Shown here: positions 10,043 through 32,634 of the stretch, in pieces | How the letters are laid out: every line of letters starts with the position of its first letter | Numbering within the stretch: the first letter of the stretch is position 1 | Assembly: GCA_943704415.1 (NCBI GenBank) | Contig: CALSCO010000868.1 | Location: 1 to 32,634 of the forward strand | DNA from: Parvularia atlantis | Lineage: Eukaryota | Length of the DNA stretch: 32,634 nucleotides | Direction of reading: 5' to 3' | The notes under the pieces: generated by a model | Told to the model about the DNA's origin: nothing | Seen by the model: the letters and a program-made list of their open reading frames with translations, nothing else | The model's database searches: none | Position numbers and translations under genes: made by a program

Positions 10043-13000
10043 ATGCGGCTGGCCCCGCTCGTGTTCGTCGCCCTCCTGGGTGCGGCAGCGGCGGCCACCT
10101 CGGCGAGCGCGCAGGTGTGCACGTCGCAGGCCCAGCCGATCAGCGTCGTCGTGCCCGCAGGCTTCGTGAACCGTGCGCGCATCACTCGACTCGCGGCTCG
10201 CGGCTCACCGGCTCACCCGTGCCCGCGCGCGCGTGCACGCAGAGGGCTTCCAGACGGCCGTCGCGGGCCAGGCGATGCCCGCGTCGTCCACGTGCACCTT
10301 CGCCTTCTCCTTCGCCAGCACGCTCCCGTCCAGCGCCAGCCCCGAGCCGTACCCGCTGCTCGTCAACTTTGACTTCAACGGCGGCGCGACCAACTTTGGC
10401 GCGAGCTACGCCATCTACGACACGTCGACGCAGGCCACGCTCACCTCGGCCAACCTGCTGGTGCGCGCCCTCTGGGGGAAGAGGGGGGGGGAATTATTTC
10501 CTGAACCAACGCGCGCGGATACGCAGGGCACCTTCTCGGGCTCGACGTTCACGGTCAACACGAATGGCCCCAAGGCGCGCTACACCGGCCCCCCGGCCAA
10601 CGCGCAGTACACGACCACGTGGAACGGCGCGGACCTGCGCCTGCGCGCCATCTCGTTCGCCGTCGTCGTGACCTCGGGCGCGACGCCCCTCCCCGGCTTC
10701 CAGACGCTCGTGCAGATCGCGTCGCACGTGAGCGGCTACGACCTCGACAACGACGGCTACACCTGGCCCAGCTACGACTGCTGCGAGACCCAGCGCAACG
10801 ACACCGCGCTGACGGGCTACCCGGGCTGCTTCTACCCATCGCAGGTCAACATTGGCGCGTTTGAGATCGGCGGCAACGGCGTGGTCGACGCCGGCGCGGG
10901 CGCGAGCTGCACCGCGCGCTCGGGCGCGAGCAACAGCCTCACAAACGACGTGAGCGAGAGCCAGACGTGCTCGTTCGCCTCGGACGCGTGCAACGCCTAC
11001 TCGAGCTCGGGCCTGACCGGCGCCAACTGCCCGATCTACACCGGCACGCGCCTGCTCCAGGCGATGGACATCTGCCAGTTCAACCGCCCCTACACCGTCC
11101 CGCCGGCCCAGAGCGCGACCAGCCTGACGAACCAGTGGTCCGTCACCTCGTCCTCGCTCACCCTCGCCGACGGCACCTCGGCCTCGCGCGGCACGGTCAG
11201 CTACGTCGTCTACTCGGGCTATTACGGCTGCTACTGGTCCACGGCCACGGTCAACTGCGCCGGCCGGAGCAGCAACGCCAACTACTACGGCTTTGCCGAC
11301 CAGTCGGCCGTGCTCACGCCGGCCATGCTTGGCCAGACGGCCTTCTTCGCGGGCAACGTGATCGTGGGCGACACCATGGCCGTGCTCTCGACCGGCTTTG
11401 CGGCGTCGCACTCGGGCGCGTACTCGCTCGGCGGGTGCCTCACGTCGCGTTCGTCGGCCCTGCCCTGGTACAACGCCAAATGCAACTCGTACTACCCCAT
11501 CACGGCCAACGTGCCCTCGTCGTACCTGAGCAAGCACAACAACGTGCTCGAGACCTCGGGCGGGTGCAACACGGGCTCGGCCAGCGTGTACGACTCGATC
11601 ATGCTCACGGCCGTCATCACCGCCCCGACCAACGCGCTCTCGTTCAGCTACAACCTGCGTTTCCTCTCGCAAGAGTTCCCGTACTGGGTCTGCACCATCT
11701 ACAACGACTTTTTCCTCGCGCTCATGTCGTCCGACGACCCGCGCTACGGCACACCCGGCGTCGGCAACAGCCCCATCCCCGCCGACGGCAACATTGCCCG
11801 CGCGCCCTCGGGCGCGAGCACGGTCCCGCTCACGATCAACTACGACGCGTTCTTCACCGTGTGCCAGGGCAACCAGCGCAACAGCAACTACAACATCGTC
11901 GGTGCTGCCTGCGTCACCTCCACCTACAGCCAGCTCGTCAGCACCGGTGCGTCCCATTGGCATTGCGGGTTGGTGCTTGCTTGGCTGTTTGGTGGCACGC
12001 GCCCCTCTTGCTCGCCCCTGCCCTCCGCCCCGCCCTCGCACACACACACACACTCACCCCCCTCGTCCGCACAGGGTTCAACTTTGTGGACACCGAGCGG
12101 CCGTCTTGGACGTCGACGTCGGTCAACTTCAACGCGGGCGCGTCGTCGCAGATGCTGACCAACACGGTCAACGTAATCCCCAACAGCCAGTTCACCGTGC
12201 GCTTCCTCATCTTTGACGTGAGCGACTTCCAGTTCCAGAGCACGGTCGTGCTCGACGGCTTCCAGTGGAACGCCCTGCCCGTGCCCGCCGGCGGCTCTCT
12301 CGGCTTCCTCGACCAGTGCCCGACCGACCCGCTCAAGACCGCCCCGGGCATCTGCGGCTGCAACGTCGCCGACACCGACTCGGACGGCGACGGCGTGGCC
12401 AACTGCAAGGACGCGTGCCCGTTTGACAGCACCAAGACCACCTCGGTCGGCCTGTGCGGCTGCGGCGTGAGCGACGTCAACTATCTCGGAGCCGACCCGG
12501 CCTGCGCCACGACCATGCAGTGCTGTGCCACCGGCGGCTACCTCGGCGGCCGGCTCGCCTGGCAGCAGAGCGTCAGCAACGCCCGCGCCGACGAGATGCA
12601 GATCCTGGCCCAGCAGACCCTCGCCTCGGGCGCGTTCTGCGCCGGCTCCAACACGCCCACGGCCTTTGCGCGCTGCTCGACCGTGTCCCTCGCCGGCCAG
12701 ACGGCCGTCTACCCGTCCGTGGGCTCGGTCCTGCCCTCGCACTTCCTCAACTACGGCCTGCTCTGCCCGAGCGCGGTCACGGCCACCCCGGCCACGCCCT
12801 GCCCGGCCAACAGCCACGACGCCATCGTCGCCCTCGCCGCCACGGGCGCGTGGGTCGCCGCCAGCTCGGCCACGGCCTACCAGGGCTCGTACATCTACAT
12901 CAGTGGGCCCACCGCCGGCGCGTCCTACATCGTCAGCCTGCCCGCGGGTATGAGCGGCACGCTCTACATCTCGACCTACGCCACCAAGCCCACCGTCGCC

Positions 13001-16000
13001 CAGACGTTTGCGCGCATGACCGCCACCGTCACGTTCAACGGCGGTGCGTCCTCGGCCACGGTCAACTTTGTCCCGACCGGCCTCGGCTGGCGCGTCCTCG
13101 GCGCCTGGCAGTTCCTGGGCACACCCGCTGTCGAGCGCGTCGTCTTCACCACGGTCGACACGGGCGCGAGCTTCCTGCTCATGCTCAACGCCCTCCGCTT
13201 CACCTCGTACGACCCCGCGTGCGACCTCATGGACGCCACGGCCGCCCTCGGCGCCGCCCAGACTCTCACCTACTACACCTACCTGCCCGGCGGCACCGGC
13301 GCGCGCTTCGAGGCCGCCCCGCTCTCGGGCACGTGCACGCTCGACCTCTACGTCAACGCCAACGTCGACGTGAGCACAACGGCCTTCGTCTACCGCGATC
13401 TGGCCTCGGCCCGCCCCGCTACCGTCGCCAACGCCGCCGTCAACGTCGTCGCGGCCGCCGGCGGCCAAACTTTCGCCGTGCTCGCCGTCGTGGCCACGGG
13501 TTCGTGCACGCCCGAGATCCGCCGCTCGGTGCTCGTGCCCGCGACGGTCGTCAGCGTCAACGTAGCCGACAGCTACGTCGTTGCCCAGGCCTCGACCACC
13601 GTGCACTTCCCCGCCCGCGCCTGCGTCGCCAATCCGGCGCCCTACACCGTCGCGTTCGAGGGCCTCAGCCGCGACACGGGCACGGGCCTGCGCGGCCGCA
13701 GCTACCGCGTCAGCGCCTCGGTCGCCGCGCCCTACACCGCTGTCAACGCCAACGGGCGCTCGCCCGCGCTCGCCCTCCCGCCGCTCCTGCGCGTGCCCTC
13801 GGGCGTCGCGCTCAGCTTCCGCGGCTGGGGCGGCTCGGCCGTGGGCGGGTCGCTTTCGCAGGCGAGCGCGAGCGCGCTTAGTGCCAAGTTCTACCCGCAG
13901 CTGCCCGTTGCCACAGCCGGCGCGCCCGCTTCGAGCTCCTTCTCGGGCTCGTACTCGTTCGGCTACACGTACAACCTGCCCGCGCTCGGCGCCGACTACT
14001 ACCTAGCCTCGGCCGTCGTGACCGACAGCGGCGCCGTGAGCACGCACGACCTCGTCCTGCGCGTGCTCACGCCTGTTGGCGGCAACGTCAACCCGACCGT
14101 TACCATCGGCAGCCCCGTCAATCCACTCTTTCTCAACTGCCCCAATAGCTTCACCGTGACGGGCACGGGCGGCGGCAGCAATGCGGTCTACCTCGAGTAC
14201 GTGCCCCTGCCGAGCACGTGGGCCACGGGCGTGAGCACGGCCACGGCCTCAACCGCGACGACGGCCACGGCCACGATCAGCTTCACGCCGGTCGAGGCCA
14301 CCGCGCTCGCGCTGCTCTATGGCGCGTACGACCTCAAGAACGGCACGGCCTACGCCTCGACTGTGCTCACGCCCACCGCGCGCTCGTGCCCACTCAACAA
14401 CGGCGTGCAGTGCAACAACCGCGGCACGTGCACCTGCGCCGGCACGTGCCAGTGCAACGCGCGCTGGTCGGGCAACGCCTGCCAGACCTACGCCAACACC
14501 GCGCCCACCGTCAGCCCGAGTGCGTTCACGATCAACCAAAACTCGGGCCAGGGCACGTATCAGCTCGTGGCGAGCGACGCCGAGGGCGACGCCGTCACGT
14601 TCTCCAACCTCGTCGGCAGCCAGTTCCACGGCACGATCGCGCTCTCGGCCGCGGGCCTGCTCACGTTCACGCCCACGACCAACTACTTCTCGCCCACGGG
14701 CGCGCCCGACACGATCCAGGTCACCCTGACCGACAACGGTGTCGTGCCGGCCAGCGCCACCTACACCATCACGATCACGATCCAGAAGGTCTACGTGCGC
14801 CCGACCGTGCCCAACTTTGCCGCAACGGTGCAGGAAAACTGCGCGGCGACGTCGTGGAACCTCCTGAGCACGATCACCAACCCCAACGGCTACGCGCTCA
14901 CGTTCTCCCTCCCCGGCACGACCGGCAGCAAGGGCACGGCGTCGTTCGCGGGCTCGATGCTCACGTACGCCTGCGCCAACCTCCAGTACGGTGTCGACAC
15001 GATCCCCTTCCAGGTCAACGACGGCCAGGGCCAGGGCCCGACCGGTGCCAACATCGTCATGACCGTCACGTTTGTGCACCAGGCCCCGACCGTCGCCAGC
15101 TTCACCGTCAACACGGACGAGGACACGCCCGTCTCGCGCACGCTGCAAAGCAACAACATCGACGGTGCCCCGGCCGTGCACCAGATCCTCAGCCAGCCCG
15201 CCCAGGGCACCGTCGTCCTCACCAATGCCGCCACCGGCGCCTTCACCTACACCCCGCAGCAGTACAAGCCCGGCACGTACACGTTCACGTACAACCTGCT
15301 CGAGACGGGCGACGTGCCCGGCCAGCCCGGCACCGCGCGCCTCACGTCCAACACGGGCACCGTCACGCTCGTCGTCGCCCACGTCAACCACGCGCCCACC
15401 GCCCAGGCCGTCGCCATCCAGGGCCTCGAGAACGCGCCGTCAATCGCCGGCACCTACGTCGGCTCGGACAACGATGTCGGCGACACGCTCTCGTACGCCT
15501 ACGTCGCCGGCAGCCTCGCGCCAGCCGGCGCCGGCTCGGTCGTCGCCGGCAGCGGCGCCGCGTTCTCATTTGTGCCCGCGGCCAACTGGTTCGGCACGGC
15601 CACGTTCACCTACCGCGTCACCGACAACGGCGGCCTCTCGGGCACGGCCACGGTCACCGTGACCGTGCTTTTTGTAAACGTCGCGCCCATCGTCACGCTC
15701 AACGCGGTCACGGTCAACCAGAACGCGGGCACGGGCACGTACTCCCCGCTCTGGTCCAGCATCAACTTTGGGCCGAACGCGGCCGTGCTCAGCTTGCTCT
15801 CGGCCAGCGTCGCGGTCATGTCGGACCCGGCGGGCGTGTTTGCGTCGGCGCCCTCGCTCAGCAACGCGGGCGTGCTGTCGTACTCGGTCAAGCCTAACGT
15901 ATTTGGTGTGGCCACGCTCGCCGTCACCGTGCGCAACAACGGCGGCACAGCCAACGGCGGCGTCGACTCGTCCACGACCCAGACCACGTTCACCGTGCGC

Positions 16001-19000
16001 TTCGTCAACCAGGCGCCCTCGTTCATGTCTGTTGCCGTCGCGTCCGTGCCCGAGGACACGCCCGGCCAGGTCGCGCGCACCTTCGCCACCAACATCTCGC
16101 CCGGCCCCGCCGGCGAGAGCGTGCAGACAGTCGCGTTCAACGTCGTCACGGGCGTGTGCACGCCCATCGCCGCCGGCACGCTCTTTGCCGCCGCGCCGGT
16201 CTTTGGCGCGGACGGCATCGTGCGCTTCACGCTCAACCCGCTCTACTACAGCACGTGCACGTACACGATTAACCTGCAGGACAACGGCGGCACGGCCAAC
16301 GGCGGCGTCGACACGTCGGCCAACGCGGTCGTGACCATCACCGTCACGCCCGTGCCGCACGCGCCTGCGTTCAATGCCCTCGCCACGACATGGACCGTGC
16401 TCGAGTCGGCCACGGCCGGCAACGCCATTTCGCTCAACTTTGCCAACGGCATCTTCACGGGCTCGTCGCAGGAGACCGACACGATGGCCTTTGTCGTGTC
16501 GTCGAGCGGCTACACCGGCGCGGCGTACTTTGCCACCGGCCCATTCACGGCCACGCCCACGGTCGCGCCGGCCACGCCGGGCAGCACGGGTGTGCTCCAG
16601 GCGACGCAGCGCCAGTACGCCAACGGCAACGTCACGCTCTCTGTCATCCTGACCAAGCCCAACCTCTCGCCCGTGCTCTCCTCGCCCGCGGCCACGCTCA
16701 ACGTGCGCATCGTCCCCGTCAACAACGCGCCCAGCTTCACCCTGGCCACGCCCACGCTCTCGTACTACAACTCGGACGTGACCTCGACCACGACCGTGAC
16801 GGTGGCGACGGGCGCGGTGGCCGGGCCGGCGGACGAGGTCGCGACGCAAACGCTCGCGTTTGTCGTCACGCACGACTGCGAGGGCTCCGCGCCGCTTTTT
16901 GCGCAGCAGCCCACGGTGACGGTGCAGGGCACGGCCGGCGCGCAGACGGGCGTGCTCTCGTTCTCGATCCAGGCCTACCGCAGCACGTACCTGCTCAGCG
17001 GCGGCAGCTGCACGCTCAGCGTCGTCCTGCGCGACAGCGGCGACACGACCGACGGCGGCAGCAACGCCTCGCCCGCCCAGACCATCACGCTCACGATCAC
17101 CCCGGTCAACCAAGCGCCCAGCTTCACCGCGCCGAGCACGCTCACCTACACCCAGAGCGGCTCGGGCAACATCGTCGTGAGCACGCCCTGGGCCTCGGCC
17201 ATCTCGGCCGGCCCGTACGAGACCTGGCAGATAAGCTCTCTCGCGTTCACGATCACGACCGTGTCGGGCGCGTCGCTCTTTGCCGAGCTGCCGACGGTGT
17301 CGCCCGCGGGCGTGATTGCGTTCCAAATCAAGCCGCTCGTCTCGGGCTCGGCCACGTTCTCGGTCGTGCTCCAGGACGGCTACGGCACGGCGCACAGCGG
17401 CCAGGACACGTCGGCCCCGTTTAGCCTCGTCATCTCCGTGCCCAGCGCGACCTTCCCCGTCTCGTTCCAGATGGTCTCGGCCGTGACCGTGCCGATGAAC
17501 TCGGCCACGTACACCAACGCCGCATTCCTCACCGGCATCGACGCCTCATCGCTCCTCCTCGCGCAGTCGCTCACGGCCTCGGTTCAAGTCACGTCGGGCG
17601 CGAGCCTGCTCACGGGCACGCCCCAGGTCACGATCAGTCAGGCCAGCTTTGACGGCAACGGCGCCGGCGGCGTCGCGGCCGTCTCGTTCACGCCCGCGCC
17701 CGGCGTGACCTCGTTCGGCACCGTCACCTTCTCCGTCACGCTCTCGTCGTCCTCGTCCACCTCGGCCCCGCGCTCGGCCACCGTCACGATCACCTACGTC
17801 AATCAGGCGCCGACTTTTGCCATCCCGCAGCCGGCGCAGGTCGTGCAGGAGGACGTGGGCGCGGTGTCAGTGCCGGCCTTTGCCACGAGCATCATCGCGG
17901 CCGCGGGCAACCCCTACGGCACGACCGTGACCTTTGCCGTCACCTGCACCAACGCCGCCACGCTCTTCTCCGCCGGCGGCGCCCCGGCCATCTCGCCCCA
18001 GGGCACGCTCACGTTCACGTCGGCCGTGTCGGAGGTGGGCACGAGCGCATGCTCGGCCGTCGCCACCAACAACGGCAGCCCCGCGCTGTCGTCTGCCTCG
18101 GTGCCGTTCACGATCGAGTTCACCTACTGGAACCACGTGCCATCGTTCACCGCCGGCGCCGACCAGACGGTGCTGCAGAACGCGGGCACGGTCACGGTCG
18201 CGGGCTGGGCCACAGGCATCCTGCCCGGCCCGCCCAACGAGTACGCGCAGACGGTCGGCTTTGCGCTGACGGGCTTTGATGCGGCGCTGTTTGAGGTCGC
18301 GCCGACCCTGAACGTCGTCGGCACGTCGTACCCCAAGACGGCCACGCTTTCGTTCCGCGGCAAGACCAACGTCTACGGCAGCACCACGGTCACGGTCGTG
18401 CTGAGCGACTCGGAGGGCGCGTCGACCGCGGCGCGCTCGCTCGGCATCACGATCACGTTTGTCAACCAGGCGCCCTCGTTCGCGCTCTCGGCCAGCGCCA
18501 TCAGCGTGCCCGAGTACAGCGGCGCGCAGACCGTGCCGGGCTTTGTGCTCAACGCCGTGGCCGGCCCGGACAACGCGCTCGAGAACGCGCAGACGCTCAC
18601 CTGGATCGTCACGGCCAGCAACGCCGCGCTCTTCGCCAAGGATAGCAACAACCAGCCGCTGCTGGCGATCGTCGGCGGCGCGCTCGAGTACACGCTGGCC
18701 TCCGGCGTCTTTGGCACGACCACGCTCACCGTCACCGCGACCGACAACGGCGGCACGGCCAACGGCGGCCAAAACAGCTTCGCGCTCAGCTCGATCTCGC
18801 TCACTGTGACCTTTGTCAACCGCCCGCCCACGTTCACGTGCGGCGCGGCCACGGTGACGGTGCTGCAAAACTCGGGCGCCAACGCCGTCGCGGGCTGGGC
18901 TTCGGCCATCTCGCCGGGCGACCCAAGCGAGACCGCGACGCAGACCGTGACGTTCAACGTGACCGTGGACGCGGCCTCGCCCATGCCCGTCAGCGGCTTG

Positions 19001-22000
19001 GCCGTCGCGGGCGGCTCGGGCACGCTCAGCTTTGCCACGGTGACGCAGATGTGGGGCTCGGTCGCCGTGACGGTGCAGGCGTGTGACAGCCTCGGCCTAT
19101 GCTCGGTGCAGACGTGCCCCGCGACGCTGCAGGTGCTTTTCGTCAACCAGGCGCCGACGTTCACCCGCGCGCTCGCGACCGTGTCGGTGCTGGAGAACAG
19201 CGGTGCGAGCACGATCGCGGGCGTGTTCACGGGCATGTCGGCCGGCCCGGGCTACAACGAGGCCGCGACGCAGACGCTCGCGTTTGACATCACGGTCGTG
19301 TCGGCCTCGCCGTCCAACCTGCTCGTGGGCACGCCGACGGCCAACGCGGCCTCGGGCGCGCTCTCGCTGCAGCCGCGGGCCAACCTCTTTGGCAATGCGA
19401 CCCTGCGCGTGACCTTGCGCGACGACGGCGGCACGACCAACGGCGGCGTGGACACATCGGCGACGGCGACGGTGCTCGTGCAGGTGCTCTGGGTCAACCA
19501 GGCGCCCTCGGCCACGCTGCTGCAGTCGGTCGTGTCGATGCCGGAGAACAGCGGTGCGCAGAGCGTGAGCGGCCTGTGGAGCGCGATCAGCGCCGGCCCA
19601 GACAACGAGGCGTGGCAGACGGTCGCGTTCACCGTGATCGACACAAGCATCGCCAACCTCAACGCGCCGCGCGCACCCTTCACGCTCTTTGCCGTCGCGC
19701 CGGCGATATCGTCCGCGGGCGTGGTTACGTTCCTGACCAACGCGGACGCGTACGGCACGGCCACGCTCACCGTGCGCCTGCGCGACAGCGGCGGCACGGC
19801 CAACGGCGGCGTCGACACGGCGCCCGCGACCTTCACGCTGACGATCGACGTGACGCGCGTCAACCAGGTGCCCCTCGCCGTGAACGACCTCGCGACCACG
19901 CCCGAGAACCAGGTGGCGACGTTCGGCGTGCTGGCCAACGACTACAGTGACTGGGACTTTGACCTGGGCACGTTGACCCTGCGCGTGGCCTACATCGTGT
20001 CGGCGTCGGTGTCGTCGGGCACGGTCGTGACGGTAGCGGGCAACGGTCTGGGCGTGGTCTACACGCCGCGGGCCAACTGGTACGGCGTCGACACGTTCCA
20101 GTACGTCGCGACGGACGGCGCGTGCACGGCGTCGGCCAGCCTGTGCTTCTCGGCGCCGGCGACGGTGACGGTCAACGTGACGCACGTGTTCATCGCGCCC
20201 GTGACGCAGCCCGTCGCGTTCACGGTCGTGGGCGACGGCGTGTACACGTCGGCCGCCACGGCGCTCTTTGTCGCGTCCACACCCAACGCGGGCGACCCAA
20301 TCGCGTTTGCGCTGCAGTCGCAGCCGGCGCACGGCACGGCCTCACTCGTCGGCGGCGTGTTCACGTACACGCCCACGCTCTACTACTGCGGCCCTGACAG
20401 CCTCACGTACAGCGCGTCGTCAGGCCCGGCCGTGGGCAACACAAGCCCGGTCACGATCACCGTCACGTGCATCAACCACGCGCCCACGGCCAGCAACATC
20501 ACGGCGACGATGGACGAGAACACGGTCAGCAGCAGCGGCAAGACCGTCACCCTCGTGCTCTCGGTGGCCGACGTAGATGCGGCCGACCAGGGCCAGCTGA
20601 CGTACTCGTGCGCGGCGCCGGGCTTCGCCAAGGGCCAGTTCAGCCCCGCGGCAGGCGCGACAAGCGCGACGTCGGTCGCGATCGTCTACTCGCCCACGCC
20701 GTACAAGAACGGCGTCGACGCGATGCGCTGCACCGTTTCGGACCCCGCCGGCGCCACGGCGACGTTCTGGGCGATCGTGACTGTGATCGGCCCGGCGTTC
20801 CACAACCCGCACCTCGTCACGCCGCTCGTGCTCTCGGGCTACTCGGACGTGCCGGGCGCGGGCCAGCTGCAGGCGATCGACTACGACGGGCTCAACACGC
20901 TCGCGTACAGCATCCTCACACCCCCGCCGGCCTCGCTCTGCACCGTCAGCCTCAACACGACCACGGGCGCGTTCACCTACGTCTCAGCACGGCTCCAGTT
21001 TGGCCAGTGCAGCTTCACATGGACGGTCGTGACGGCGCAGAGCCTAGGCCCGGACAACGCACCGGGCCTGGTCCAGATCAACATCCAGGCGGTGCAGCAC
21101 AACCCGGTCACGTACGCGAGCACGCACACGGCGTACCAGAACTTTGTGCTCTCGAACCAGCAGCTCAACGTGACCGACCTCGACTCGAACCAGGCGGGCG
21201 CGGGTCTGACGGTGGCGGTCGTGACGAACACGCCCGCGTCGGCCGGCACGGTCGTGATCACCAACGCGGCCACGGGCGTGTTCCAGTTCACGCCGGCGAC
21301 CAACTACTTTGGAACGACCTCGTTCACGTACCGCGCCACGTCCAACTTTGGCATGCAGTCGAGCGTGACGACAGCGACGATCGTTGTGGTGCGCCTGAAC
21401 CAGCCGCCGACGGCGCAGAGCGGCACGGCAACGACGCCGATGAACACGCCCGTGAACGTGCTCCTGCCCTACACCGACATTGACACGCCCCTGGCCAACA
21501 TGACGTTCGCGATCTTGCAGGCGCCCACGTCGGGCACGGCCGCGATCAGCACCAGCGTGGCCCAGACGGCCGTCTACACGCCCGCGAGCAATTGGTACGG
21601 CGTCGACTCGTTCCGCTTCAGCGTGAGCGACGGCCAGTACACGGCCACGGGCACGATCACGGTCAACGTGACCTTTGTGCACTACCCGCCCACGGCGCAG
21701 GACGCGACGTGGACCGTCCCGGCCAACACGGTGTACCAGGACCAGCTCTCGATCGCCTCGTTCCAGTTCCCGCAGACGCTCACGGCCGTGCTCTTTGGCG
21801 CGGGCCCGCAGAACGGCTCGGTCGTGTTCAACGGCGGCACGCCCTTCCTTGTCACATACACGCCGCGCACATCGACCGACCCCAACTACGCCTCGACCGA
21901 CTCGTTCCAGTTCCGCGCGTTTGACGGCACGCTCTACTCGGCCGTGAGCACCGTGCGCATCTCGATCACGCGCTCGCCCTTCCGCGCCCCGACTGCGGCC

Positions 22001-25000
22001 TCGTTTGCCGTCTCGGCGCAGCAGGAGCAGCCGTACGCGTTTGTGCTCCAGGGCGCCGACCCCAACACGCCCGCGCTGCCGCTCACGTACTCGATCGTCG
22101 CCGCGCCAACCCTGGGCACGCTCAGCGGCCTCGGCGCGGGCACGGGCCAGGTCACATACACGGGCGCGAGCAACAAGTGGGGCACCGACACGTTCACGTA
22201 CAAGGTCAGCAACGGCTACTACTCGTCGACCGTGGCCGCGGTCACGGTCAACGTGCTCTACGTCAACAAGCCGCCGCTGGCCGCGTCGCTCTCGTTCACG
22301 ACCAACGAGAACACGGCCCTGTCGGCGCAGCTCTCCGCTACCAACATTAACGGGCCGGGCCCGCTGCGCTACATCCTCACGGTGCCGACAACGTCGGGCA
22401 CGGTCGCGGTCAACGACGTGACGGGCCAGTTTACCTACACGCCCAGCACGTACTTTTACGGCACCGACTCGTTCCAGTACAAGGCCTTTGACGGCGTGGG
22501 CTACTCGACCACGGCGGCCAAGGTGACGATCACGGTCGTCAACGTGCACCAGCCGCCGATCCCGACCAGCGCAAGCATCGTCACGCGCGAGGACGTGCCG
22601 TACACGGGCACGCTCGCGTGCTGGGGCCCGGACTCGACCACGTACCGCTTCTACATCACCGCCAGCCGCGTCCTCGGCTCGGTCACGGTCGACCGCCTGA
22701 CGGGCCGGTACACGTACATGCCGCCGCCGGCCTGGTCGGGCGCGGACGAGTTTGCGTTCACGTGCGACGACACGGTCCTGTCGTCGACTGGCCCGGGCAC
22801 GGTCTCGGTCACTGTCACGCACGTCGACCGCGCGCCCGAGGCGCTGGCGCAGACGGTCAACGGCCAGCAGAACCAGGCCGTCTCGGTCACGCTCACGTCG
22901 TACAACCGCGACAACCTGCCCGTGACCTACACCCTGCTCTCGCTCACGACCGTGCGCGGCGGCACGCTCCAACAGACCAGCGTCGGCTCGCCCGCGCTCG
23001 TCTACACACCCCCGAGCCAGTTCTTTGGCACAGACTCGTTCTCGTTCACGTGCAACTCGGGCTCACTCGCCTCGCCCGCGCCGGCGCTCGTCACGCTCCA
23101 GATCGCCCACGTCAATCAGCCGCCGACGGTGAGCCCGCTCGTGCTCTCGATCGCCGTGAGCACGTCGACCATCGTGGCCGTGCCGTCGTCGGACCCGGAC
23201 CTGGTCTGCTGCGATGACACGCTCATGCTCGCGGCCCTGCCAACCGCGGCCATGGGCAACGTCGCCTTCGTGCCCGACCCGCCCGCGGCGTTCTTGTACA
23301 CGGCGCGCACAACGCCGGGCACCGAGACGCTCACGGTGACGGTGCGCGACCGCGAGGGCCTCACGGCCACGACGACGGTGACGATCTACATCACGGGCGC
23401 GTCGGTCGTGCCGCCGGTGATTTCGGACCTCAAGTGGTTCGGCACGGAGGACCAGCAGCTGCGCGACACGCTCGCCTGGGGCATCGTCCGCGCCACGTCC
23501 AACGTGGTTAGCTACACCGTGTCGGGCCTGGACGGGAGCATTGCTGCGCTCGACGCCTCGACCAATGCCGCGACGGGCTTTGTGGCGCTCAACCTGCGCC
23601 AGTACTACTTTGGCACGTTCTCGTTCAAGTACCAGGTGCGCGACGCCAACAACGCCGTGAGCAATGTCGCGACGGTCACGGTGACGATCGACGAATAGTG
23701 CGTGCTCTTTTTGGGCGGCGACGCTTGACTGACTTTTGTGCGCACGCGCAGCCCGTACGCGCCCACGGCGTACCCGCGCACCGTCACGATCAACCAGGAC
23801 ACGACGGCGTCGTTCACGCTGCAGGCGTCGGACGTGAACGGGCACAACAGCTTTGTCTTCTCGGTCGCCTCGACGGGCAACGCGCAGCAGGCGACGATCA
23901 GCCTCGACTCGGCCAGCGGCGCGTGCACGTTCAAGCCGCCCGCGGGCCGACACGACACGTACGTCTTCTATTACCGTGTGTTTAACGGCTTCACGTTCTC
24001 GGCCCCGGCCGCGGTCACGGTCGTGGTCAACAAGGTGTACGCGGCGCCGGTGGCGCAGTCGGCCACATACGAGGCGCCGCAGAACGCGGCCGTGTCGGGC
24101 GTGCTCCCGTGCAGCCAGGTGGACGGCCTGACGCTGAGCTTCGCCTGGGTCGGCGGCCAGCCGCAGGCGCTGCTGGCGCTGGGTGAGCTCGAGAGCAACC
24201 AGATCGAGGGCACGTTCACGCTCACGCCGACGGGCGCGATCTTTGGCACGTTCACGGCGCAGTTCTACTGCTCGGCGCAGACCCCGGCCGGCAGCACGCT
24301 CACGAGCAACACGGGCACGATCACGGTTGTGCTCACGTACGTCAACAAGCCGCCGACCGCGTTCGACCTGCCGCTGTCGTGGCCGCAGGCGACCTACCTC
24401 AACGCGGCGACCTACTCGGCGCGCGTGACAGCGCTCGACCCGCAGGACGGCGCCAACCTGCGCGCGTTTGTGCAAAACAGCGACCCGAGCTACGGCGCGC
24501 TCTCGTTCGCTTCCGACGGCACGTTTGACTACGCCCCCGCGATCAACTACGTCGGCCAGGACAGCTTCACATTCTACGCGCTCGACGTCGAGGGCCTCCA
24601 GTCCAACGTCGCCACGGTGACGATCACGCTCCTGGCCGTGCGCGTGCCGCCGCTGGCGCGCGTGGTCACAGTCAACGTGGACGAGGACTCGTCGGTCGAG
24701 GGCCAGCTCGAGGGCGTGTCGGCCTACCCAGACAGCGTCACATACACAATCAAGGTCGCGCCCGTGTACGGCACACTCGACCTGCTCGACGCGAGCGCCG
24801 GCACGTTCCGCTACACCCCGCGCGCACTCTACCACGGCAGCGACTTTGCGGCGTACACGGTCACGGACAGCGACGGGTCGACCGTGCTCGAGTCGTCGAT
24901 CGCGTCGGTGGCGATCCAGGTGGCCCACATCAACCACGCGCCGGTCGCGCGCAACTTTAGCATCACCGCGACGGCCGGCGTCAACTACGTGGGCGAGTGG

Positions 25001-25672
25001 GACGGCTCGGACGTGGACGCGGGCGACGTGCTGACGGGCGTGCCTGTGGCGAGCGCGACGACGGCGGGCACGGCTTCGACCGAGAGCGGCCTCGCGTTCA
25101 CGTACCTGCACCCGGCCACAGCCGCGGCGACGACAGACGTGGTCGCTTTCTACGTGCAGGACCAGACCGGCACGACGTCGGACGTGGCCTACATGACCGT
25201 GACGGTGCTGGCGGCGCCGCCGGTCGCGCCCACGATGGGCGAGAGCAACAACAACACGACCGGCACCAACATTGCCGGCGCGGCCGTGGGCGCCGTGCTC
25301 GCGGCGCTCGTGCTCGTGGCCCTGGCCGCGCTCGCCTGGTACCGCTACCGCGAGGCCTACGCCGTGTCGAGCTTCCAGAAGGAGGCGATGGTCGCCGCGG
25401 CCAACATGTCCAACTCGAACCCGCTCTACGTCGGCATGACCAACGAGTTTGTGTCGCCGCTCTACCAGGACCCGTCGAGCAACCGCGACCACATCTGGGA
25501 GCGCCAGCCGTCGGCAGGCACGGTCCGCCAGGCGCCCACGGGCACAGTCGAGGACCTCTACCGCGATGCGCCCACGCACGGCGGCGCCGCCCGCGGCTCG
25601 CAAGGCTTTGTCGGCGCGCGCTCGCTCCAGCAAGAGACGTTCTTAAACCCGCTCTTTGCGAGCGACGACTGA
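10043..25672 (+). CDS. Giant type I membrane adhesion receptor (~5,103 aa, 5 exons) with bacterial-type Ig/cadherin-like repeats and an integrin-beta/Sib-like NPxY tail
   Basis: Signal peptide MRLAPLVFVALLGAAAAATSASA. Introns 10173-10242, 10461-10526, 11947-12074 and 23698-23751 join four separately called ORFs into 15,312 nt of continuous frame. Modules: choice-of-anchor-L-like, TSP3-like, golvesin-like, EGF-like, about 30-35 Ig-like repeats, a TM helix at 25271-25339, and a tail with NPLY, SPLY and NPLF. Confidence 0.88.
14490..25210 (+). repeat. Tandem array of roughly 30-35 diverged ~95-125-aa Ig-like (Big_9/tandem-95/cadherin-like) protein repeats
   Basis: Recurring VNQAPxF/VNHAPTA linkers, YTPxxNWYGxDxFxY cores and D[ND]GGTANGGVD loops. 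Confidence 0.85.
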
Positions 25673-26487
25673 GCCACCACCATACACCTGTTCTGTTTCG
25701 TTCTTTTGTTCCCTGTTTCGTTCACATGGTCAAAACAGCAGCACTCAAGTGCACGTCACGGTAGCGAGTGGTCGCAGCGATGGTTCTGAGGGACGCAGTT
25801 GAAGAGCCGTCGGCAGTGAGGCGCACTGCCCTATTCAGTTCAAGTTGGCGCCAAAGCAGCCGACGAGCAGAGAACCGTCGTCCAGCGCGCACACACACCA
25901 AGACGATTCGCAGTTGATCGTTTGCTCCATCATGATCACGCCTGCAGTGCCTCGCAGCATGAGCTTGTTCAGGTTGAACAGGAAAACCCAGACTAGGCGC
26001 CACGGCAAGGCCGTACGGGCCCGCCTGACGTCGCCACGCTGCGCAAAACTGCAGACGCGTGATTCTCAGGCTGGTCCGCCACCGTGACGACCAGCTGCCA
26101 GTGGCCGTGGCCGGTGAAACTGCAGCCTCAGGCTGCCCGTGAGCGATAGGGCCCGGGCCGTGCAAACTGTCCAGCTGCATTCAGGTTGCCACTTGTGCCG
26201 TTCCCGATCGTGGGCACGGGCTGGCCGAGCGTGCGGTAGTCGCGCGTCGGTCGAGCGGGTGCGGCGCAGGTCTCTTGCCGCTCCCAGTTGCCCGACCGAC
26301 AGACGTATAAGACTTCGTGGTTCGTAAGCGACGGAAGACACACAACACAGGGGGTGGGGCACAAGGCCGAGATGGCTGAGGTAAGCGGGTGAGGTAAGAC
26401 GATGACAAGAGATGACAGACGGCAGTCGACAAAAGTGACACTCATCAGCCATGCAGTGCACCTGTTTGGCACCACGGGACGCACAGC

Positions 26488-30360: not shown

Positions 30361-31290
30361 TCACAGCGCCTGCGCAGCCGCCACGCGCTCGCGCCACGCC
30401 ACGAGCTCGTCCGGCGACGCGCTGAGCAGGCGAGGTCAGCCGAGCCAAAGTGCATGCGAGCGCACACGCACCTGCGCGCCGAGTAGCACTGGAAGACGCG
30501 CTCGCGCTGGTCGCTGTTGCGCGCGCGCGTGCCGTTGATGAGCCGGCCGACGACGCGCATGGGCGTGCCAAGCGGGGCAAGCGGGCTGCGCAGGCGGTAG
30601 TCCATTTCGTAGAAGACGCAGGGCAGGACGGCGAGCGCGGCGGCGGGCGTGCCGAGCGACTCGACCAAGGTGAAGCGGCGGCCTACGTTGTCGCCGCCGC
30701 CGTGGTTGCGCTGGACCGAGTGCAGGTGCCCTAGCCGGCGCAGTGAGAATCCACAGAGCGCGCAAGGCACGACGGCGCACCAAAGACCTCGACGGCGGCG
30801 ACAGTCTCGGGCGGGAGCAGCGCGTAGGCGAGGGCCGTGTCGGGCTCGGCGAGGACGCGGGCGATGGTGCGCGGCACGACACGGCCGTCGCGCGCATAGT
30901 TGACGACGTCGACGAGCACGGCTGAGCGCGGTGGCGCGCTGGCGGCGGTGGCGGCGGCGCGCGGCGGCTGCTGGCGGCGGACGGGCGCGGGCGTCGGCGT
31001 CGGCGGCTGCTGCGGCGCGAGGGCGCTGAGGTGCCTGGCCGAGAAGGCGCCGACGTGCGGGCGCAGCTGCCGCATGGGAGCGTGGCGCGTGAGTCGTGGC
31101 GCGGTCGGTGCGGGGCGGCGCGCACCGGCGTCGTGCGGGTCGCGTCGAGCGCGAGGTCGCCGCCGGACGTCTGGGTGAGGACGCGGTTGAGCGGGCGCGG
31201 CGTGCCGTGCGGCGGGCGGGGCGGGCGGCCGTCGTCGAGCGCGTCGTCGGCACCGTCGTCGGCGCGGCGCGGGAGGGCGACGGGGCGCAT
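30361..31290 (-). CDS. SPATA22: SPATA22-like OB-fold protein (putative meiotic ssDNA-binding partner of MEIOB), 4 exons
   Basis: Introns 31067-31125, 30731-30780 and 30422-30471 give VEVFGHLHS...RRFTL...LPCVFYEMDYRL...MRVVGRL...FQCYSARSASPDE. This parallels the SPATA22 C-terminal pattern (FEV...LDS, LPCVFYEIDR, RCVG, FxCVSVRPAS). The N-terminus is low-complexity. Confidence 0.72.
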
Positions 31291-31294
31291 GGGG

Positions 31295-32158
31295 AAACAG
31301 CCTGATCTTGCGCTCGCGCTGGCGTTCCTGCGGATAGACGACCCAATAGGAGCGGTCGTCGCGCACCACATGATCGGCCGCGAAGACCAGCCTTCCGGCC
31401 GCAATGTCGTAGGCGAACAGCTCCGGTATCGCCATCGCGATGCCATGGCCGCGCAGCGCCGCCTGAATGCTCATCGCCTGCATCTGCAGCGCCATGGTCG
31501 GTCGCCCGTCGGGCTTCGGCGCATCGATGCCGAGATCGGCAAACCAGCTCTTCCATGACAGCTCCGTCGGGCTCAACCGCGGCGCCCGCAGCAAATCCTC
31601 CGGCGTGCGCAGTTGCAGTTGCTCGCGCAATTCCGGGGTGCAGAGCGGCGCGTAATGGCAGTCGAAGAGCTTCTCCGCGACGAGGCCGGGCCATTCGCCC
31701 AGCCCGTAGCGCAGCGCGAGATCGACGGAATCCGTCGCGAAATCCACCAGATGCTCGGAGGTTCCCACCCGCACCTCGAACTGCGGGTTCTCGACCTGGA
31801 ACTGGGCCAGCCGCGGCGAGAGCCAGGTGATCGCCATGGTCTGCAGCGAGGAGATCGTCAGGACGGTCTGGTTCTCCTCGCAGAGATTGCGGAACACCGT
31901 GCCGATATCGGATAGCGCCTTCGTCACCGGCCCGGCGAGCCGCTGGCCGATGGCGGTCAGCACGACCTGGCGCGGCTGTCGCACGAACAGGGCCGCGCCG
32001 ACCCGATCCTCCAGCAGCCGGATCTGGTAGCTCACCGCAGCCTGCGTCATGCCGAGCTCTTCGGCCGCGCGGGTGAAGTTCTGGTGACGGGCCGCCGCCT
32101 CGAAGACGCGGACCGCGGCCAGGGGCGGCAACTTCGGCGGCGGCGGATGCGTCGGCAT
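31295..32158 (-). CDS. Bacterial LysR-family regulator (GcvA-like), C-terminally truncated at the junction with eukaryotic DNA
   Basis: HTH LPPLAAVRVFEAAARHQNFTRAAEELGMTQAAVSYQIRLLE and substrate domain WLSPRLAQF, VDLALRYGLGEWPGL, SYWVVYP. No introns. Similarity stops at KIRLF (288 aa), and the expected final RDWL-type helix and stop are absent. Confidence 0.93.
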
Positions 32159-32165
32159 GCCGAAG

Positions 32166-32182
32166 CATAAGCTGTCTTTATG
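32166..32182. promoter_or_regulatory. LysR-type binding box (CATAA-N7-TTATG, T-N11-A)
   Basis: A perfect inverted repeat CATAAgctgtctTTATG lies 8 bp upstream of the LysR start, in the gap between the divergent LysR and DUF1127 genes. Confidence 0.8.
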
Positions 32183-32279
32183 ACAGATAGCAATCTTCCG
32201 CTTTGTCGTGCGGGCCGCTTTCGCTCAGATTCGACCTCACGACAGCGGGCCCGGAGGCCCGCGCTTCCGAGGATAGACC

Positions 32280-32507
32280 ATGACCTGCGTTTCGCAGACG
32301 GCTCCGCTGGCCTCGCCCGGCGGCATCACCTTTCCGCGCGCCTGGCTGGCGCTCTGGCGGCGCTATCGGGACGAGGCGCGGGTTCGGCGCCATCTCGCGA
32401 CGCTGGACGAGCGCGCGCTCCGCGATCTCGGCCTGTCGCGCGAGGCGGTCGATCCGCCACGCCCCTGCGACCCCGCCGGGCTATGGCTCAACCGCGTTCC
32501 GGGATAG
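32280..32507 (+). CDS. DUF1127 (YjiS-like) small protein
   Basis: 75 aa with the signature WRRYRDEARVRRHLATLDERALRDLGLSRE. It is divergent from a GcvA-like LysR gene, a common proteobacterial arrangement. Confidence 0.88.
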   Translation: MTCVSQTAPLASPGGITFPRAWLALWRRYRDEARVRRHLATLDERALRDLGLSREAVDPPRPCDPAGLWLNRVPG

Positions 32508-32520
32508 GCGCGCCGGCCCC

Positions 32521-32563
32521 TTCGCCGCAAAAGCGGTTTCCACTTTGGCCGAACATGCTCTAG
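32521..32563 (-). repeat. Half copy of an alphaproteobacterial intergenic palindromic repeat (CIR/BRU-RS-like)
   Basis: The minus strand reads CTAGAGCATGTTCGGCCAAAGTGGAAACCGCTTTTGCG, matching the remembered CTAGAGC...AAGTGGAAACCGGTTT arm typical of Hyphomicrobiales/Caulobacter repeats. Confidence 0.6.
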
Positions 32564-32600
32564 ACGACGGCTGACGAACCTCATCAGATCGCAAGCCGCC

Positions 32601-32634
32601 ATGACCACCTACAAGTCCGATTTCCTGCGCGTGC
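32601..32634 (+). CDS. tyrS: Probable start of tyrosine--tRNA ligase (cut by the window end)
   Basis: MTTYKSDFLRV resembles the MxxFKSDFLxxL N-terminus of Hyphomicrobiales TyrS. Only 11 codons are visible. Confidence 0.6.
   Translation, partial: MTTYKSDFLRV

Follow-up and report, generated by a model that had tools for sequence, protein, structure and literature searches.

We have found that contig CALSCO010000868.1 of Parvularia atlantis, whose 32,634 nucleotides (nt) we refer to as the window, carries on its plus strand a single spliced gene, at 10043-25672, for a predicted type I membrane protein of giant size. Its exons are spliced into one frame, its domains run from a head through a long repeat stalk of bacterial adhesin type to a membrane helix and a cytoplasmic tail, and the helix and the paired motifs of the tail are kept in three species and match integrin beta. 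We propose that the protein is a long-reach adhesion receptor whose membrane-proximal NPLY motif would bind talin and thereby couple a surface or a prey cell to actin. Judging from sequence and from analogy with known receptors, we put the probability of this reading at roughly 0.62.

A preliminary description, made from the letters and their open reading frames (ORFs), had joined four ORFs through four short GT-AG introns, and the joined frame stands: from a start codon at 10043 it runs for 15,312 nt, or 5,103 residues and a stop, with no internal stop. The coding exons lie at 10043-10172, 10243-10460, 10527-11946, 12075-23697 and 23752-25672 (plus strand, as are all features of this gene). 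The GT-AG introns between them measure 70 nt (10173-10242), 66 nt (10461-10526), 128 nt (11947-12074) and 54 nt (23698-23751), and excision of the last removes the stop that ends the large ORF. The borders drawn earlier for the ORFs needed revision: in the large one, coding sequence begins at 12075, the ~400 codons before that point being exon 3 and intron 3 read in the wrong frame, and the stop-to-stop ends differ slightly from those first given. Three public sequencing runs (X1, X2 and X3) hold stretches of the gene. In contigs of X1, which is RNA-type by an automated guess, all four coding introns are spliced out precisely and without a mismatch, the joints including 10172-10243 for intron 1 and 23697-23752 for intron 4, and contig pieces 10526-11945 and 12074-16314 adjoining at intron 3; these contigs also skip a 61-nt GT-AG intron in the 5' untranslated region (UTR; 9952-10012) that the preliminary description had not included. 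Run X3 retains the introns across the same stretch. The longest X1 contig (6,084 nt) extends from the 5' UTR at 9906 to 16314, across coding introns 1-3 as well as the UTR intron; overlapping contigs then extend the chain to 19818 and to 23666, a short contig bridges intron 4, and the final one ends at 25682. The breaks at 16314/16286 and 19818/19790 occur in X1 and X3 alike, which suggests interruptions of the assembly and not ends of transcripts, and the chain of contigs supports one mRNA. Run X2, a lake-water metatranscriptome, has at least eight pieces, 151-248 nt long, that match the gene without a difference; one of them lies over part of intron 2 and may come from DNA or from unspliced RNA. 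The G+C fraction at third codon positions (GC3) is 0.93-0.97 in all 17 blocks of the gene, and at 0.94 overall it is close to the 0.95 and 0.97 of two neighbouring host genes; because its codon use matches these neighbours, the sequence marks it as a long-resident host gene. We rejected separate genes, one of the outcomes named beforehand as refuting the proposal, on the exact splicing in X1 and the contiguous DNA in X3, and we also rejected bacterial contamination as the source of this gene.

The same architecture recurs in two unnamed proteins. A search with exon 4 among proteins of 2,130-6,778 residues scored 1,776 candidates and gave 149 matches, the best 120 of which were examined. Two of these are colinear with the window protein: P0165 (4,346 residues; 13 members), 42% identical over 96% of exon 4, and P0166 (4,722 residues; 3 members), 37% identical over 99% of exon 4 and including the head. 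The next matches among those examined reach 23-39% identity over at most 68% of the exon. In both orthologues the reading continues without a break past the position of intron 4 to the helix and motifs seen in the window protein, and their records carry no protein name. The start of P0165 reads as intron sequence, and its member P0289 reads through an in-frame insert there, so that its source is probably a eukaryote with different intron positions; P0166 is without its first ~80 residues and has no signal peptide, as would be expected if there were a further exon upstream, though this does not prove that one exists. The short metagenome proteins P0003 (65% identity), P0135 and P0009 look like exon fragments of further family members. 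P0165 occurs as 13 near-identical copies drawn from three metagenome sources, which makes it likely that its host is common. The window proteins and P0003 have no entry in the Atlas. A full-text literature search, outside which most subscription journals lie, found no description of this receptor architecture, no occurrence of the term 'choice-of-anchor L' and a single paper that mentions PF08725. Going by their sequences, the window protein and its two orthologues form an undescribed family, as had been anticipated, of an already known kind, namely non-integrin receptors with NPxY tails.

The membrane helix and tail are the part of the protein that most resembles integrin beta. Beyond the N-terminal stretch there is only one strong hydrophobic helix (residues 4974-4992, Kyte-Doolittle 2.7), lying within a transmembrane helix predicted by hydropathy at residues 4970-4993 (25268-25339), whose GxxxG motif is kept in both orthologues; this region is 56-68% identical among the orthologues, the highest value for any region, and a type I topology is predicted. 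The 110-residue tail (25340-25669) was characterised by motif reading, Pfam and a profile search of the PDB. By motif reading it carries NPLY (25418-25429), SPLY eight residues beyond (25454-25465) and a distal NPLF (25646-25657). In all three proteins the order is NI[AT]GAA[VI]G, the hydrophobic helix, 40-42 residues, NPLY-x8-[N/S]PL[Y/F] and then an NP motif near the C-terminus, the second motif being NPLF or NPLY in the orthologues. None of the 118 other long matches has the NPLY-x8-[N/S]PL[Y/F] pair; ten of them have a C-terminal helix, and none of these ten has NPx[YF] behind it. In 200,000 shuffles of the tail, an NPx[YF]-x8-[NS]Px[YF] pair arose at a rate of 3.5e-5. Integrin_b_cyt (PF08725) is the top Pfam family for each of the three tails, and one of them, that of P0165, passes its cut-off of 23.4 bits (29.0 bits, E 8.6e-7). 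With a profile of the three tails, integrin beta chains make up 15 of the 20 PDB matches and 12 of the top 13 (best E 5.9e-4), the alignment covering the helix and both motifs; the 20 include no chain of the LDL-receptor family or of APP. In integrin beta tails a Trp eight residues before the Tyr contacts talin; this Trp of beta1 and beta3 is replaced by Phe in P0165 and by Met in P0166.

Searches for the tail elsewhere gave nothing further within their scope. A word-index search with the tail alone found nothing among proteins of 1,120-3,195 and 143-455 residues, ranges that exclude the lengths of the orthologues. None of 143 pattern matches in metagenome contigs to the last 342 residues was confirmed, nor was any of 57 in viral contigs to the tail alignment. 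The tail profile and the middle region described below were each found in none of 301 genomes from the phylum to which G001 belongs, neither search having a positive control. Models for RTX, T9SS, PEP-CTERM and sortase signals gave no match on the last exon.

Most of the ectodomain is a stalk of 34 bacterial Ig/cadherin-like repeats at residues 1397-4955 (14495-25225), 70% of the 5,103-residue protein, in which the Big_9, Cadherin_4, Cadherin_5 and tandem-95 families score above cut-off (on exon 4, 430 bits for the tandem-95 model NF012211 and 382 bits for Big_9). Four short repeats are followed by 12 long ones (109-129 residues) and 18 short ones, with a mean pairwise identity of 23%. One repeat weakly matches Ig_SIBA-E_2nd (E 0.032, 14.8 bits against a cut-off of 27.8). 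By Pfam, neither PF00028 Cadherin nor Cadherin_C matches the protein, only bacterial cadherin-like families doing so, and a PDB sequence search with the repeats returned weak rows only. We note that acidic repeat motifs number 10 in P0166 against 1-2 in the others, with Asp and Glu at 8.4% against 5.2%, which suggests that calcium sites in the repeats have decayed in two of the three lineages.

At the N-terminus, a signal peptide is predicted at residues 1-23 (10043-10111) from hydropathy and a small-residue end. It is followed by a domain at residues 24-182 (10112-10724) that is shared with P0003, P0135 and P0166 and matches no Pfam or NCBIfam family. The head proper, residues 183-660 (10725-12286), combines a MopE-like Cys/Asp motif with a choice-of-anchor L domain (models NF038133 and PF26766) and is split by intron 3. 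A profile from 104 relatives scores the spliced head at 243.8 bits, continuously over the intron. NF038133, whose cut-off is 27 bits, gives 23.8 for one exon and 14.1 for the other when they are taken apart; all four of these relatives that were tested pass it. A structure model of the homologue P0008 (113 sequences, predicted local confidence (pLDDT) 95) is mainly beta, and its best fold matches are to jelly-roll carbohydrate-binding, MAM and cleaved-adhesin domains (Z 7-9); a Foldseek search with the head model had no match that reached E 0.001, and a PDB sequence search with the head gave none. We describe the head as a predicted jelly-roll binding domain, an assignment that indicates fold class and not function. 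Beyond it lie a thrombospondin type 3-like Cys/Asp segment at residues 661-741 (12287-12529; TSP_3 E 0.0048, below cut-off; 55% identical to P0166), a middle region at residues 742-1355 (12530-14371; 32-40% identical to the orthologues) and an EGF-like domain at residues 1361-1392 (14387-14482; EGF_2 30.9 bits, cut-off 22.1). The middle region holds a golvesin-C-like domain at about 12830-13117, for which Golvesin_C scores below cut-off in the window protein (E 1.8e-4) and above it in both orthologues; a single-sequence model of residues 739-1398 (pLDDT 34) was unusable. Pfam gave no von Willebrand factor A (VWA) or integrin_beta match for any of the exons (E up to 0.1) or, with E up to 1, for P0165 and P0166, with ~420 residues of the window protein (938-1355) matching no family, and the sole DxSxS motif (residue 257) falls within the MopE/choice-of-anchor L module. 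Most of what the preliminary description had read from the letters is upheld by these results: a signal peptide leading through to one helix and a ~110-residue tail, 30-35 Ig-like repeats, a bacterial giant-adhesin ectodomain, an integrin-beta/Sib-like membrane and tail module, and the lack of a detectable VWA domain or MIDAS, an adhesion site that depends on a metal ion. Its choice-of-anchor-L head was correct in kind and incomplete, as the head region also holds the MopE-like, thrombospondin type 3-like, golvesin-like and EGF-like modules. The resemblance of the tail to integrin beta proves greater than the letters alone revealed, being conserved in the two orthologues and extending over the helix and both motifs.

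The head appears to have come from bacteria. Among 1.84 billion proteins, exon 3 gave 389 matches, of which the best 150 are at most 1,221 residues long and mostly MopE-motif plus choice-of-anchor L proteins. By hand count, 53 of 76 genome loci are titled as Myxococcota taxa, and the Atlas clusters of one homologue are mostly Myxococcota too. The bacterial head relatives are 468-1,180 residues long. In all 48 bacterial ORFs read the module is C-terminal, and 25 of them have a lipobox by a simple pattern; since the module lies near the N-terminus in the window protein, it would be the end farthest from the membrane in both settings. A quick tree built with 45 of 104 full-length bacterial-type matches groups the window protein's head with those of P0166 and P0009 in a single clade (SH-aLRT 100), separate from the 45 bacterial rows. 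Because the bacterial family is broad, rather than because of any nesting, we infer that head and stalk were acquired from bacteria long ago, the former deriving from a lipoprotein family of myxobacterial type. None of 52 pattern matches to the head pair in metagenome contigs was confirmed. The myxobacterial genome G002 holds 14 matches to the head module, so by sequence the family is expanded in some predatory bacteria; it appears to be unstudied.

If the protein is a long-reach adhesion receptor, the jelly-roll head would form the ligand-binding tip, most likely for glycans of a surface or of prey. At ~4 nm per repeat, the 34 repeats would serve as a spacer holding this tip ~140 nm from the membrane. 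The membrane-proximal NPLY would recruit talin, loading the bond onto actin, and the motif eight residues on would recruit a second adaptor with a PTB or FERM domain. Like SibA in Dictyostelium, such a receptor would act with neither an integrin alpha chain nor activation of the MIDAS type. Clustered beta tails, that of Capsaspora included, recruit talin via NPxY/F (PMC6450878), the proximal NPxY of SibA is required for binding of talin A (PMC9197732), the SibA-talin link bears force without integrins (PMC12686525) and talin is described as kept in most chytrids (10.1101/2020.06.12.142943).

Several points weigh against this proposal. The window tail scores only 16.0-16.4 bits against Integrin_b_cyt (E 0.0075 at 16.4) and the P0166 tail 14.4 bits, both below the cut-off, and on its own the window tail reaches integrin beta3 in the PDB only at E 0.42. 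Its Met lies seven, not eight, residues ahead of the Tyr, and its second motif is SPLY, not NPxY. NPxY motifs also act in endocytosis and recycling. The fold matches of the head are middling (Z 9.0, root-mean-square deviation 3.0, 138 residues aligned; Z 8.1, deviation 3.1, 135 aligned), derive from the bacterial homologue P0008 and include non-glycan binders such as MAM domains. The three eukaryote-type heads sit on a long branch outside the bacterial rows, in a tree that names neither donor nor direction. P0166 is presumed from its sequence to be eukaryotic, and the single mRNA is supported by a chain of short-read contigs, no read or contig spanning the whole of it.

The paired motifs might instead serve uptake. 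A very long ectodomain with a predicted binding head, and three NPx-type motifs of which the last lies near the C-terminus in all three proteins, would suit a capture-and-uptake receptor comparable to megalin or a phagocytic lectin, with NPxY acting as a sorting signal for clathrin adaptors or sorting nexins and not as a force-bearing talin site; the prey-binding lectin MBP1 of Acanthamoeba has two NPLF motifs (PMC9692275). We think this unlikely, since the tail profile finds integrin betas and not LDL-receptor-family or APP tails, and since the tail follows integrin beta in its spacing of eight residues, in how far the motif lies from the membrane and in the hydrophobic residue upstream, although uptake and adhesion are not mutually exclusive. 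A protein that is 70% repeats could also be a structural tether or spacer of the cell coat, a mucous sheath or glycocalyx, with its tail fixed to cortical actin and no binding of outside surfaces or prey. Nucleariids often have a mucous coat. Algal gralins, moreover, tie scales to the cell through bacterial-type ectodomains (PMC4494055). Within the ectodomain the head is the most conserved part, with 51% identity to P0166 where the repeats reach 35-42%. This would suit a specific ligand and makes the tether improbable in our view, even if that ligand could still be the cell's own coat. That the integrin likeness is a matter of chance or a functionless relic, or the long protein an artefact of joined genes or assembly, might be argued from the two tails below the Pfam cut-off and from the last 1.3 kb of the window, which looks foreign and bacterial, so that the contig may hold a misjoin. 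The exact splicing in X1 and contiguous DNA in X3, the two independent orthologues unbroken over the intron 4 site into the same helix and motifs, and the rarity of the motif pair among shuffled tails largely refute this explanation, and we consider it very improbable.

It is possible, if doubtful, that the adhesion receptor we propose is in part a remnant of integrin. In that case its helix and tail would descend directly from the ancestral integrin beta gene; the fungal lineage, described as having lost integrins, would not have shed this gene altogether but would have had its ectodomain swapped for a bacterial giant adhesin, giving an alpha-independent, ~140-nm receptor that still drives talin. 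Were this so, integrin beta, Sib and the family described here would represent one mobile talin-docking module with interchangeable ectodomains. Against such descent, short motifs can converge.

The closest known systems include Sib proteins and integrin beta. Dictyostelium SibA-E are type I proteins with a glycine-rich helix and two NPxY-type motifs, all of which the window protein shows or is predicted to show (with SPLY as the second motif), and are reported to need no integrin alpha partner (PMC9197732, PMC12686525). They have an extracellular VWA domain, which was not found in the window protein, where a choice-of-anchor L head and 34 repeats stand instead. Sib proteins are ~1,900-2,000 residues long, and the window protein is far longer. 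This comparison was made by description and Pfam model. Sib is reported from dictyostelids only, and variosean type II integrin betas of 1,405-3,641 residues keep a VWA head with cation sites (10.1101/2020.04.29.069435). With integrin beta, which besides these includes type I chains of metazoans and protists, the family shares the GxxxG helix, an NPxY-x8-NPxY-type tail at equal distance from the membrane, a P0165 tail that passes PF08725 and one EGF-like domain. It differs in that the beta-I/VWA head with its MIDAS, ADMIDAS and SyMBS cation sites was not found in the window protein, in that the PSI domain, Cys-rich stalk repeats and integrin tail domain have no match there, and in that the alpha-subunit-binding LLxxxHDR[RK]E stretch is kept in none of the three tails; moreover, the Cys-rich EGF repeats of integrin beta adjoin the membrane, whereas the EGF-like domain here lies ~3,580 residues from the helix. 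We thus rejected both a true integrin, for want of a detected beta-I/VWA head, a PSI domain and the HDR[RK]E stretch, and a true Sib, no VWA/MIDAS head having been found.

Acanthamoeba MBP1, which lies at the cell surface, has a binding domain that resembles bacterial ones and two NPLF motifs, and talin has been proposed, untested, as its partner (PMC9692275, PMC12686525), but it is much smaller and has no long stalk, and its DUF4114 and CXCXC repeats were not found in the window protein by Pfam or Cys map. Bacterial tandem-95/Big_9 giant adhesins share the long array of the same repeat families, above cut-off; they are intron-less with a C-terminal bacterial export or anchor signal, whereas the gene here is spliced and matched no such signal, and among the best 120 of 149 matches no bacterial one covers more than 68% of exon 4. 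Myxobacterial lipoproteins with MopE and choice-of-anchor L motifs share the head module and carry it at the C-terminus, whereas here it lies close to the N-terminus of a predicted type I protein that has a eukaryotic tail and is encoded by a spliced gene. The gralins of green algae are eukaryotic membrane proteins with ectodomains likely to be bacterial in origin and have been proposed as integrin stand-ins; they are described as being of type II, their tail of 11 residues carrying no talin motif (PMC4494055). Holozoan and classical cadherins have PF00028 repeats and a catenin-binding tail, neither of which was matched in the window protein.

Holomycota are described as without integrins (10.1101/2020.04.29.069435). 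The cell-cell link of Fonticula alba is reported as unidentified, with a genome lacking obvious cadherins, integrins and Dictyostelium-type adhesion molecules (PMC9097593). If the host is a nucleariid, the family described here is a candidate for the missing adhesion receptor of the integrin-less relatives of fungi, an argument that depends on that assignment, as the anatomy of the protein and the existence of the family do not. Surveys would miss such proteins, since the main one is described as keeping PF08725 matches only at E <1e-10 and the best member here scores 8.6e-7. A tail of the type used in eukaryotic mechanotransduction is joined here to a giant adhesin of wholly bacterial type, and is conserved with it at 37-42% identity. 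The relation of SibA to integrins is stated to be open (PMC12686525), and the novelty is tempered by Sib and MBP1, non-integrin receptors that already show NPxY tails.

The window reads as eukaryotic DNA, rich in G+C, whose introns are short and spliceosomal, and the neighbours of the receptor gene encode C2H2 zinc-finger, S15 peptidase, RING, V-ATPase subunit F, alpha/beta hydrolase, GH92 mannosidase, MIT-domain and asparagine-synthetase-domain proteins. The GH92 alpha-mannosidase gene (~6830-9513, minus strand), which has a signal-peptide-like start, stands head to head with the receptor gene, ~400 bases away; a shared role of the two in handling glycans would be conceivable. Just downstream of the receptor gene, at 26186-26362, a local depth spike with many loose ends in X3 and X1 points to a short dispersed repeat. 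The last part of the window (31290-32634) looks bacterial: an intron-less LysR regulator gene (minus strand), with codon use that differs from that of host genes (GC3 0.88, CTG over CTC), lacks a stop where expected and runs into host-like sequence near 31290, and the segment also holds a short ORF facing away and the start of a further ORF, which resembles that of a tyrosyl-tRNA synthetase. It is likely a chimeric contig join or a contaminant or, less probably, a recent insertion. At the other end of the window lie a tRNA-Asn(GTT) gene (363-436, minus strand) and the intron-less C2H2 zinc-finger gene (498-1601, minus strand), whose product has an N-terminal motif resembling that of fungal Sfp1, which may serve as a marker of lineage, and a long acidic tract.

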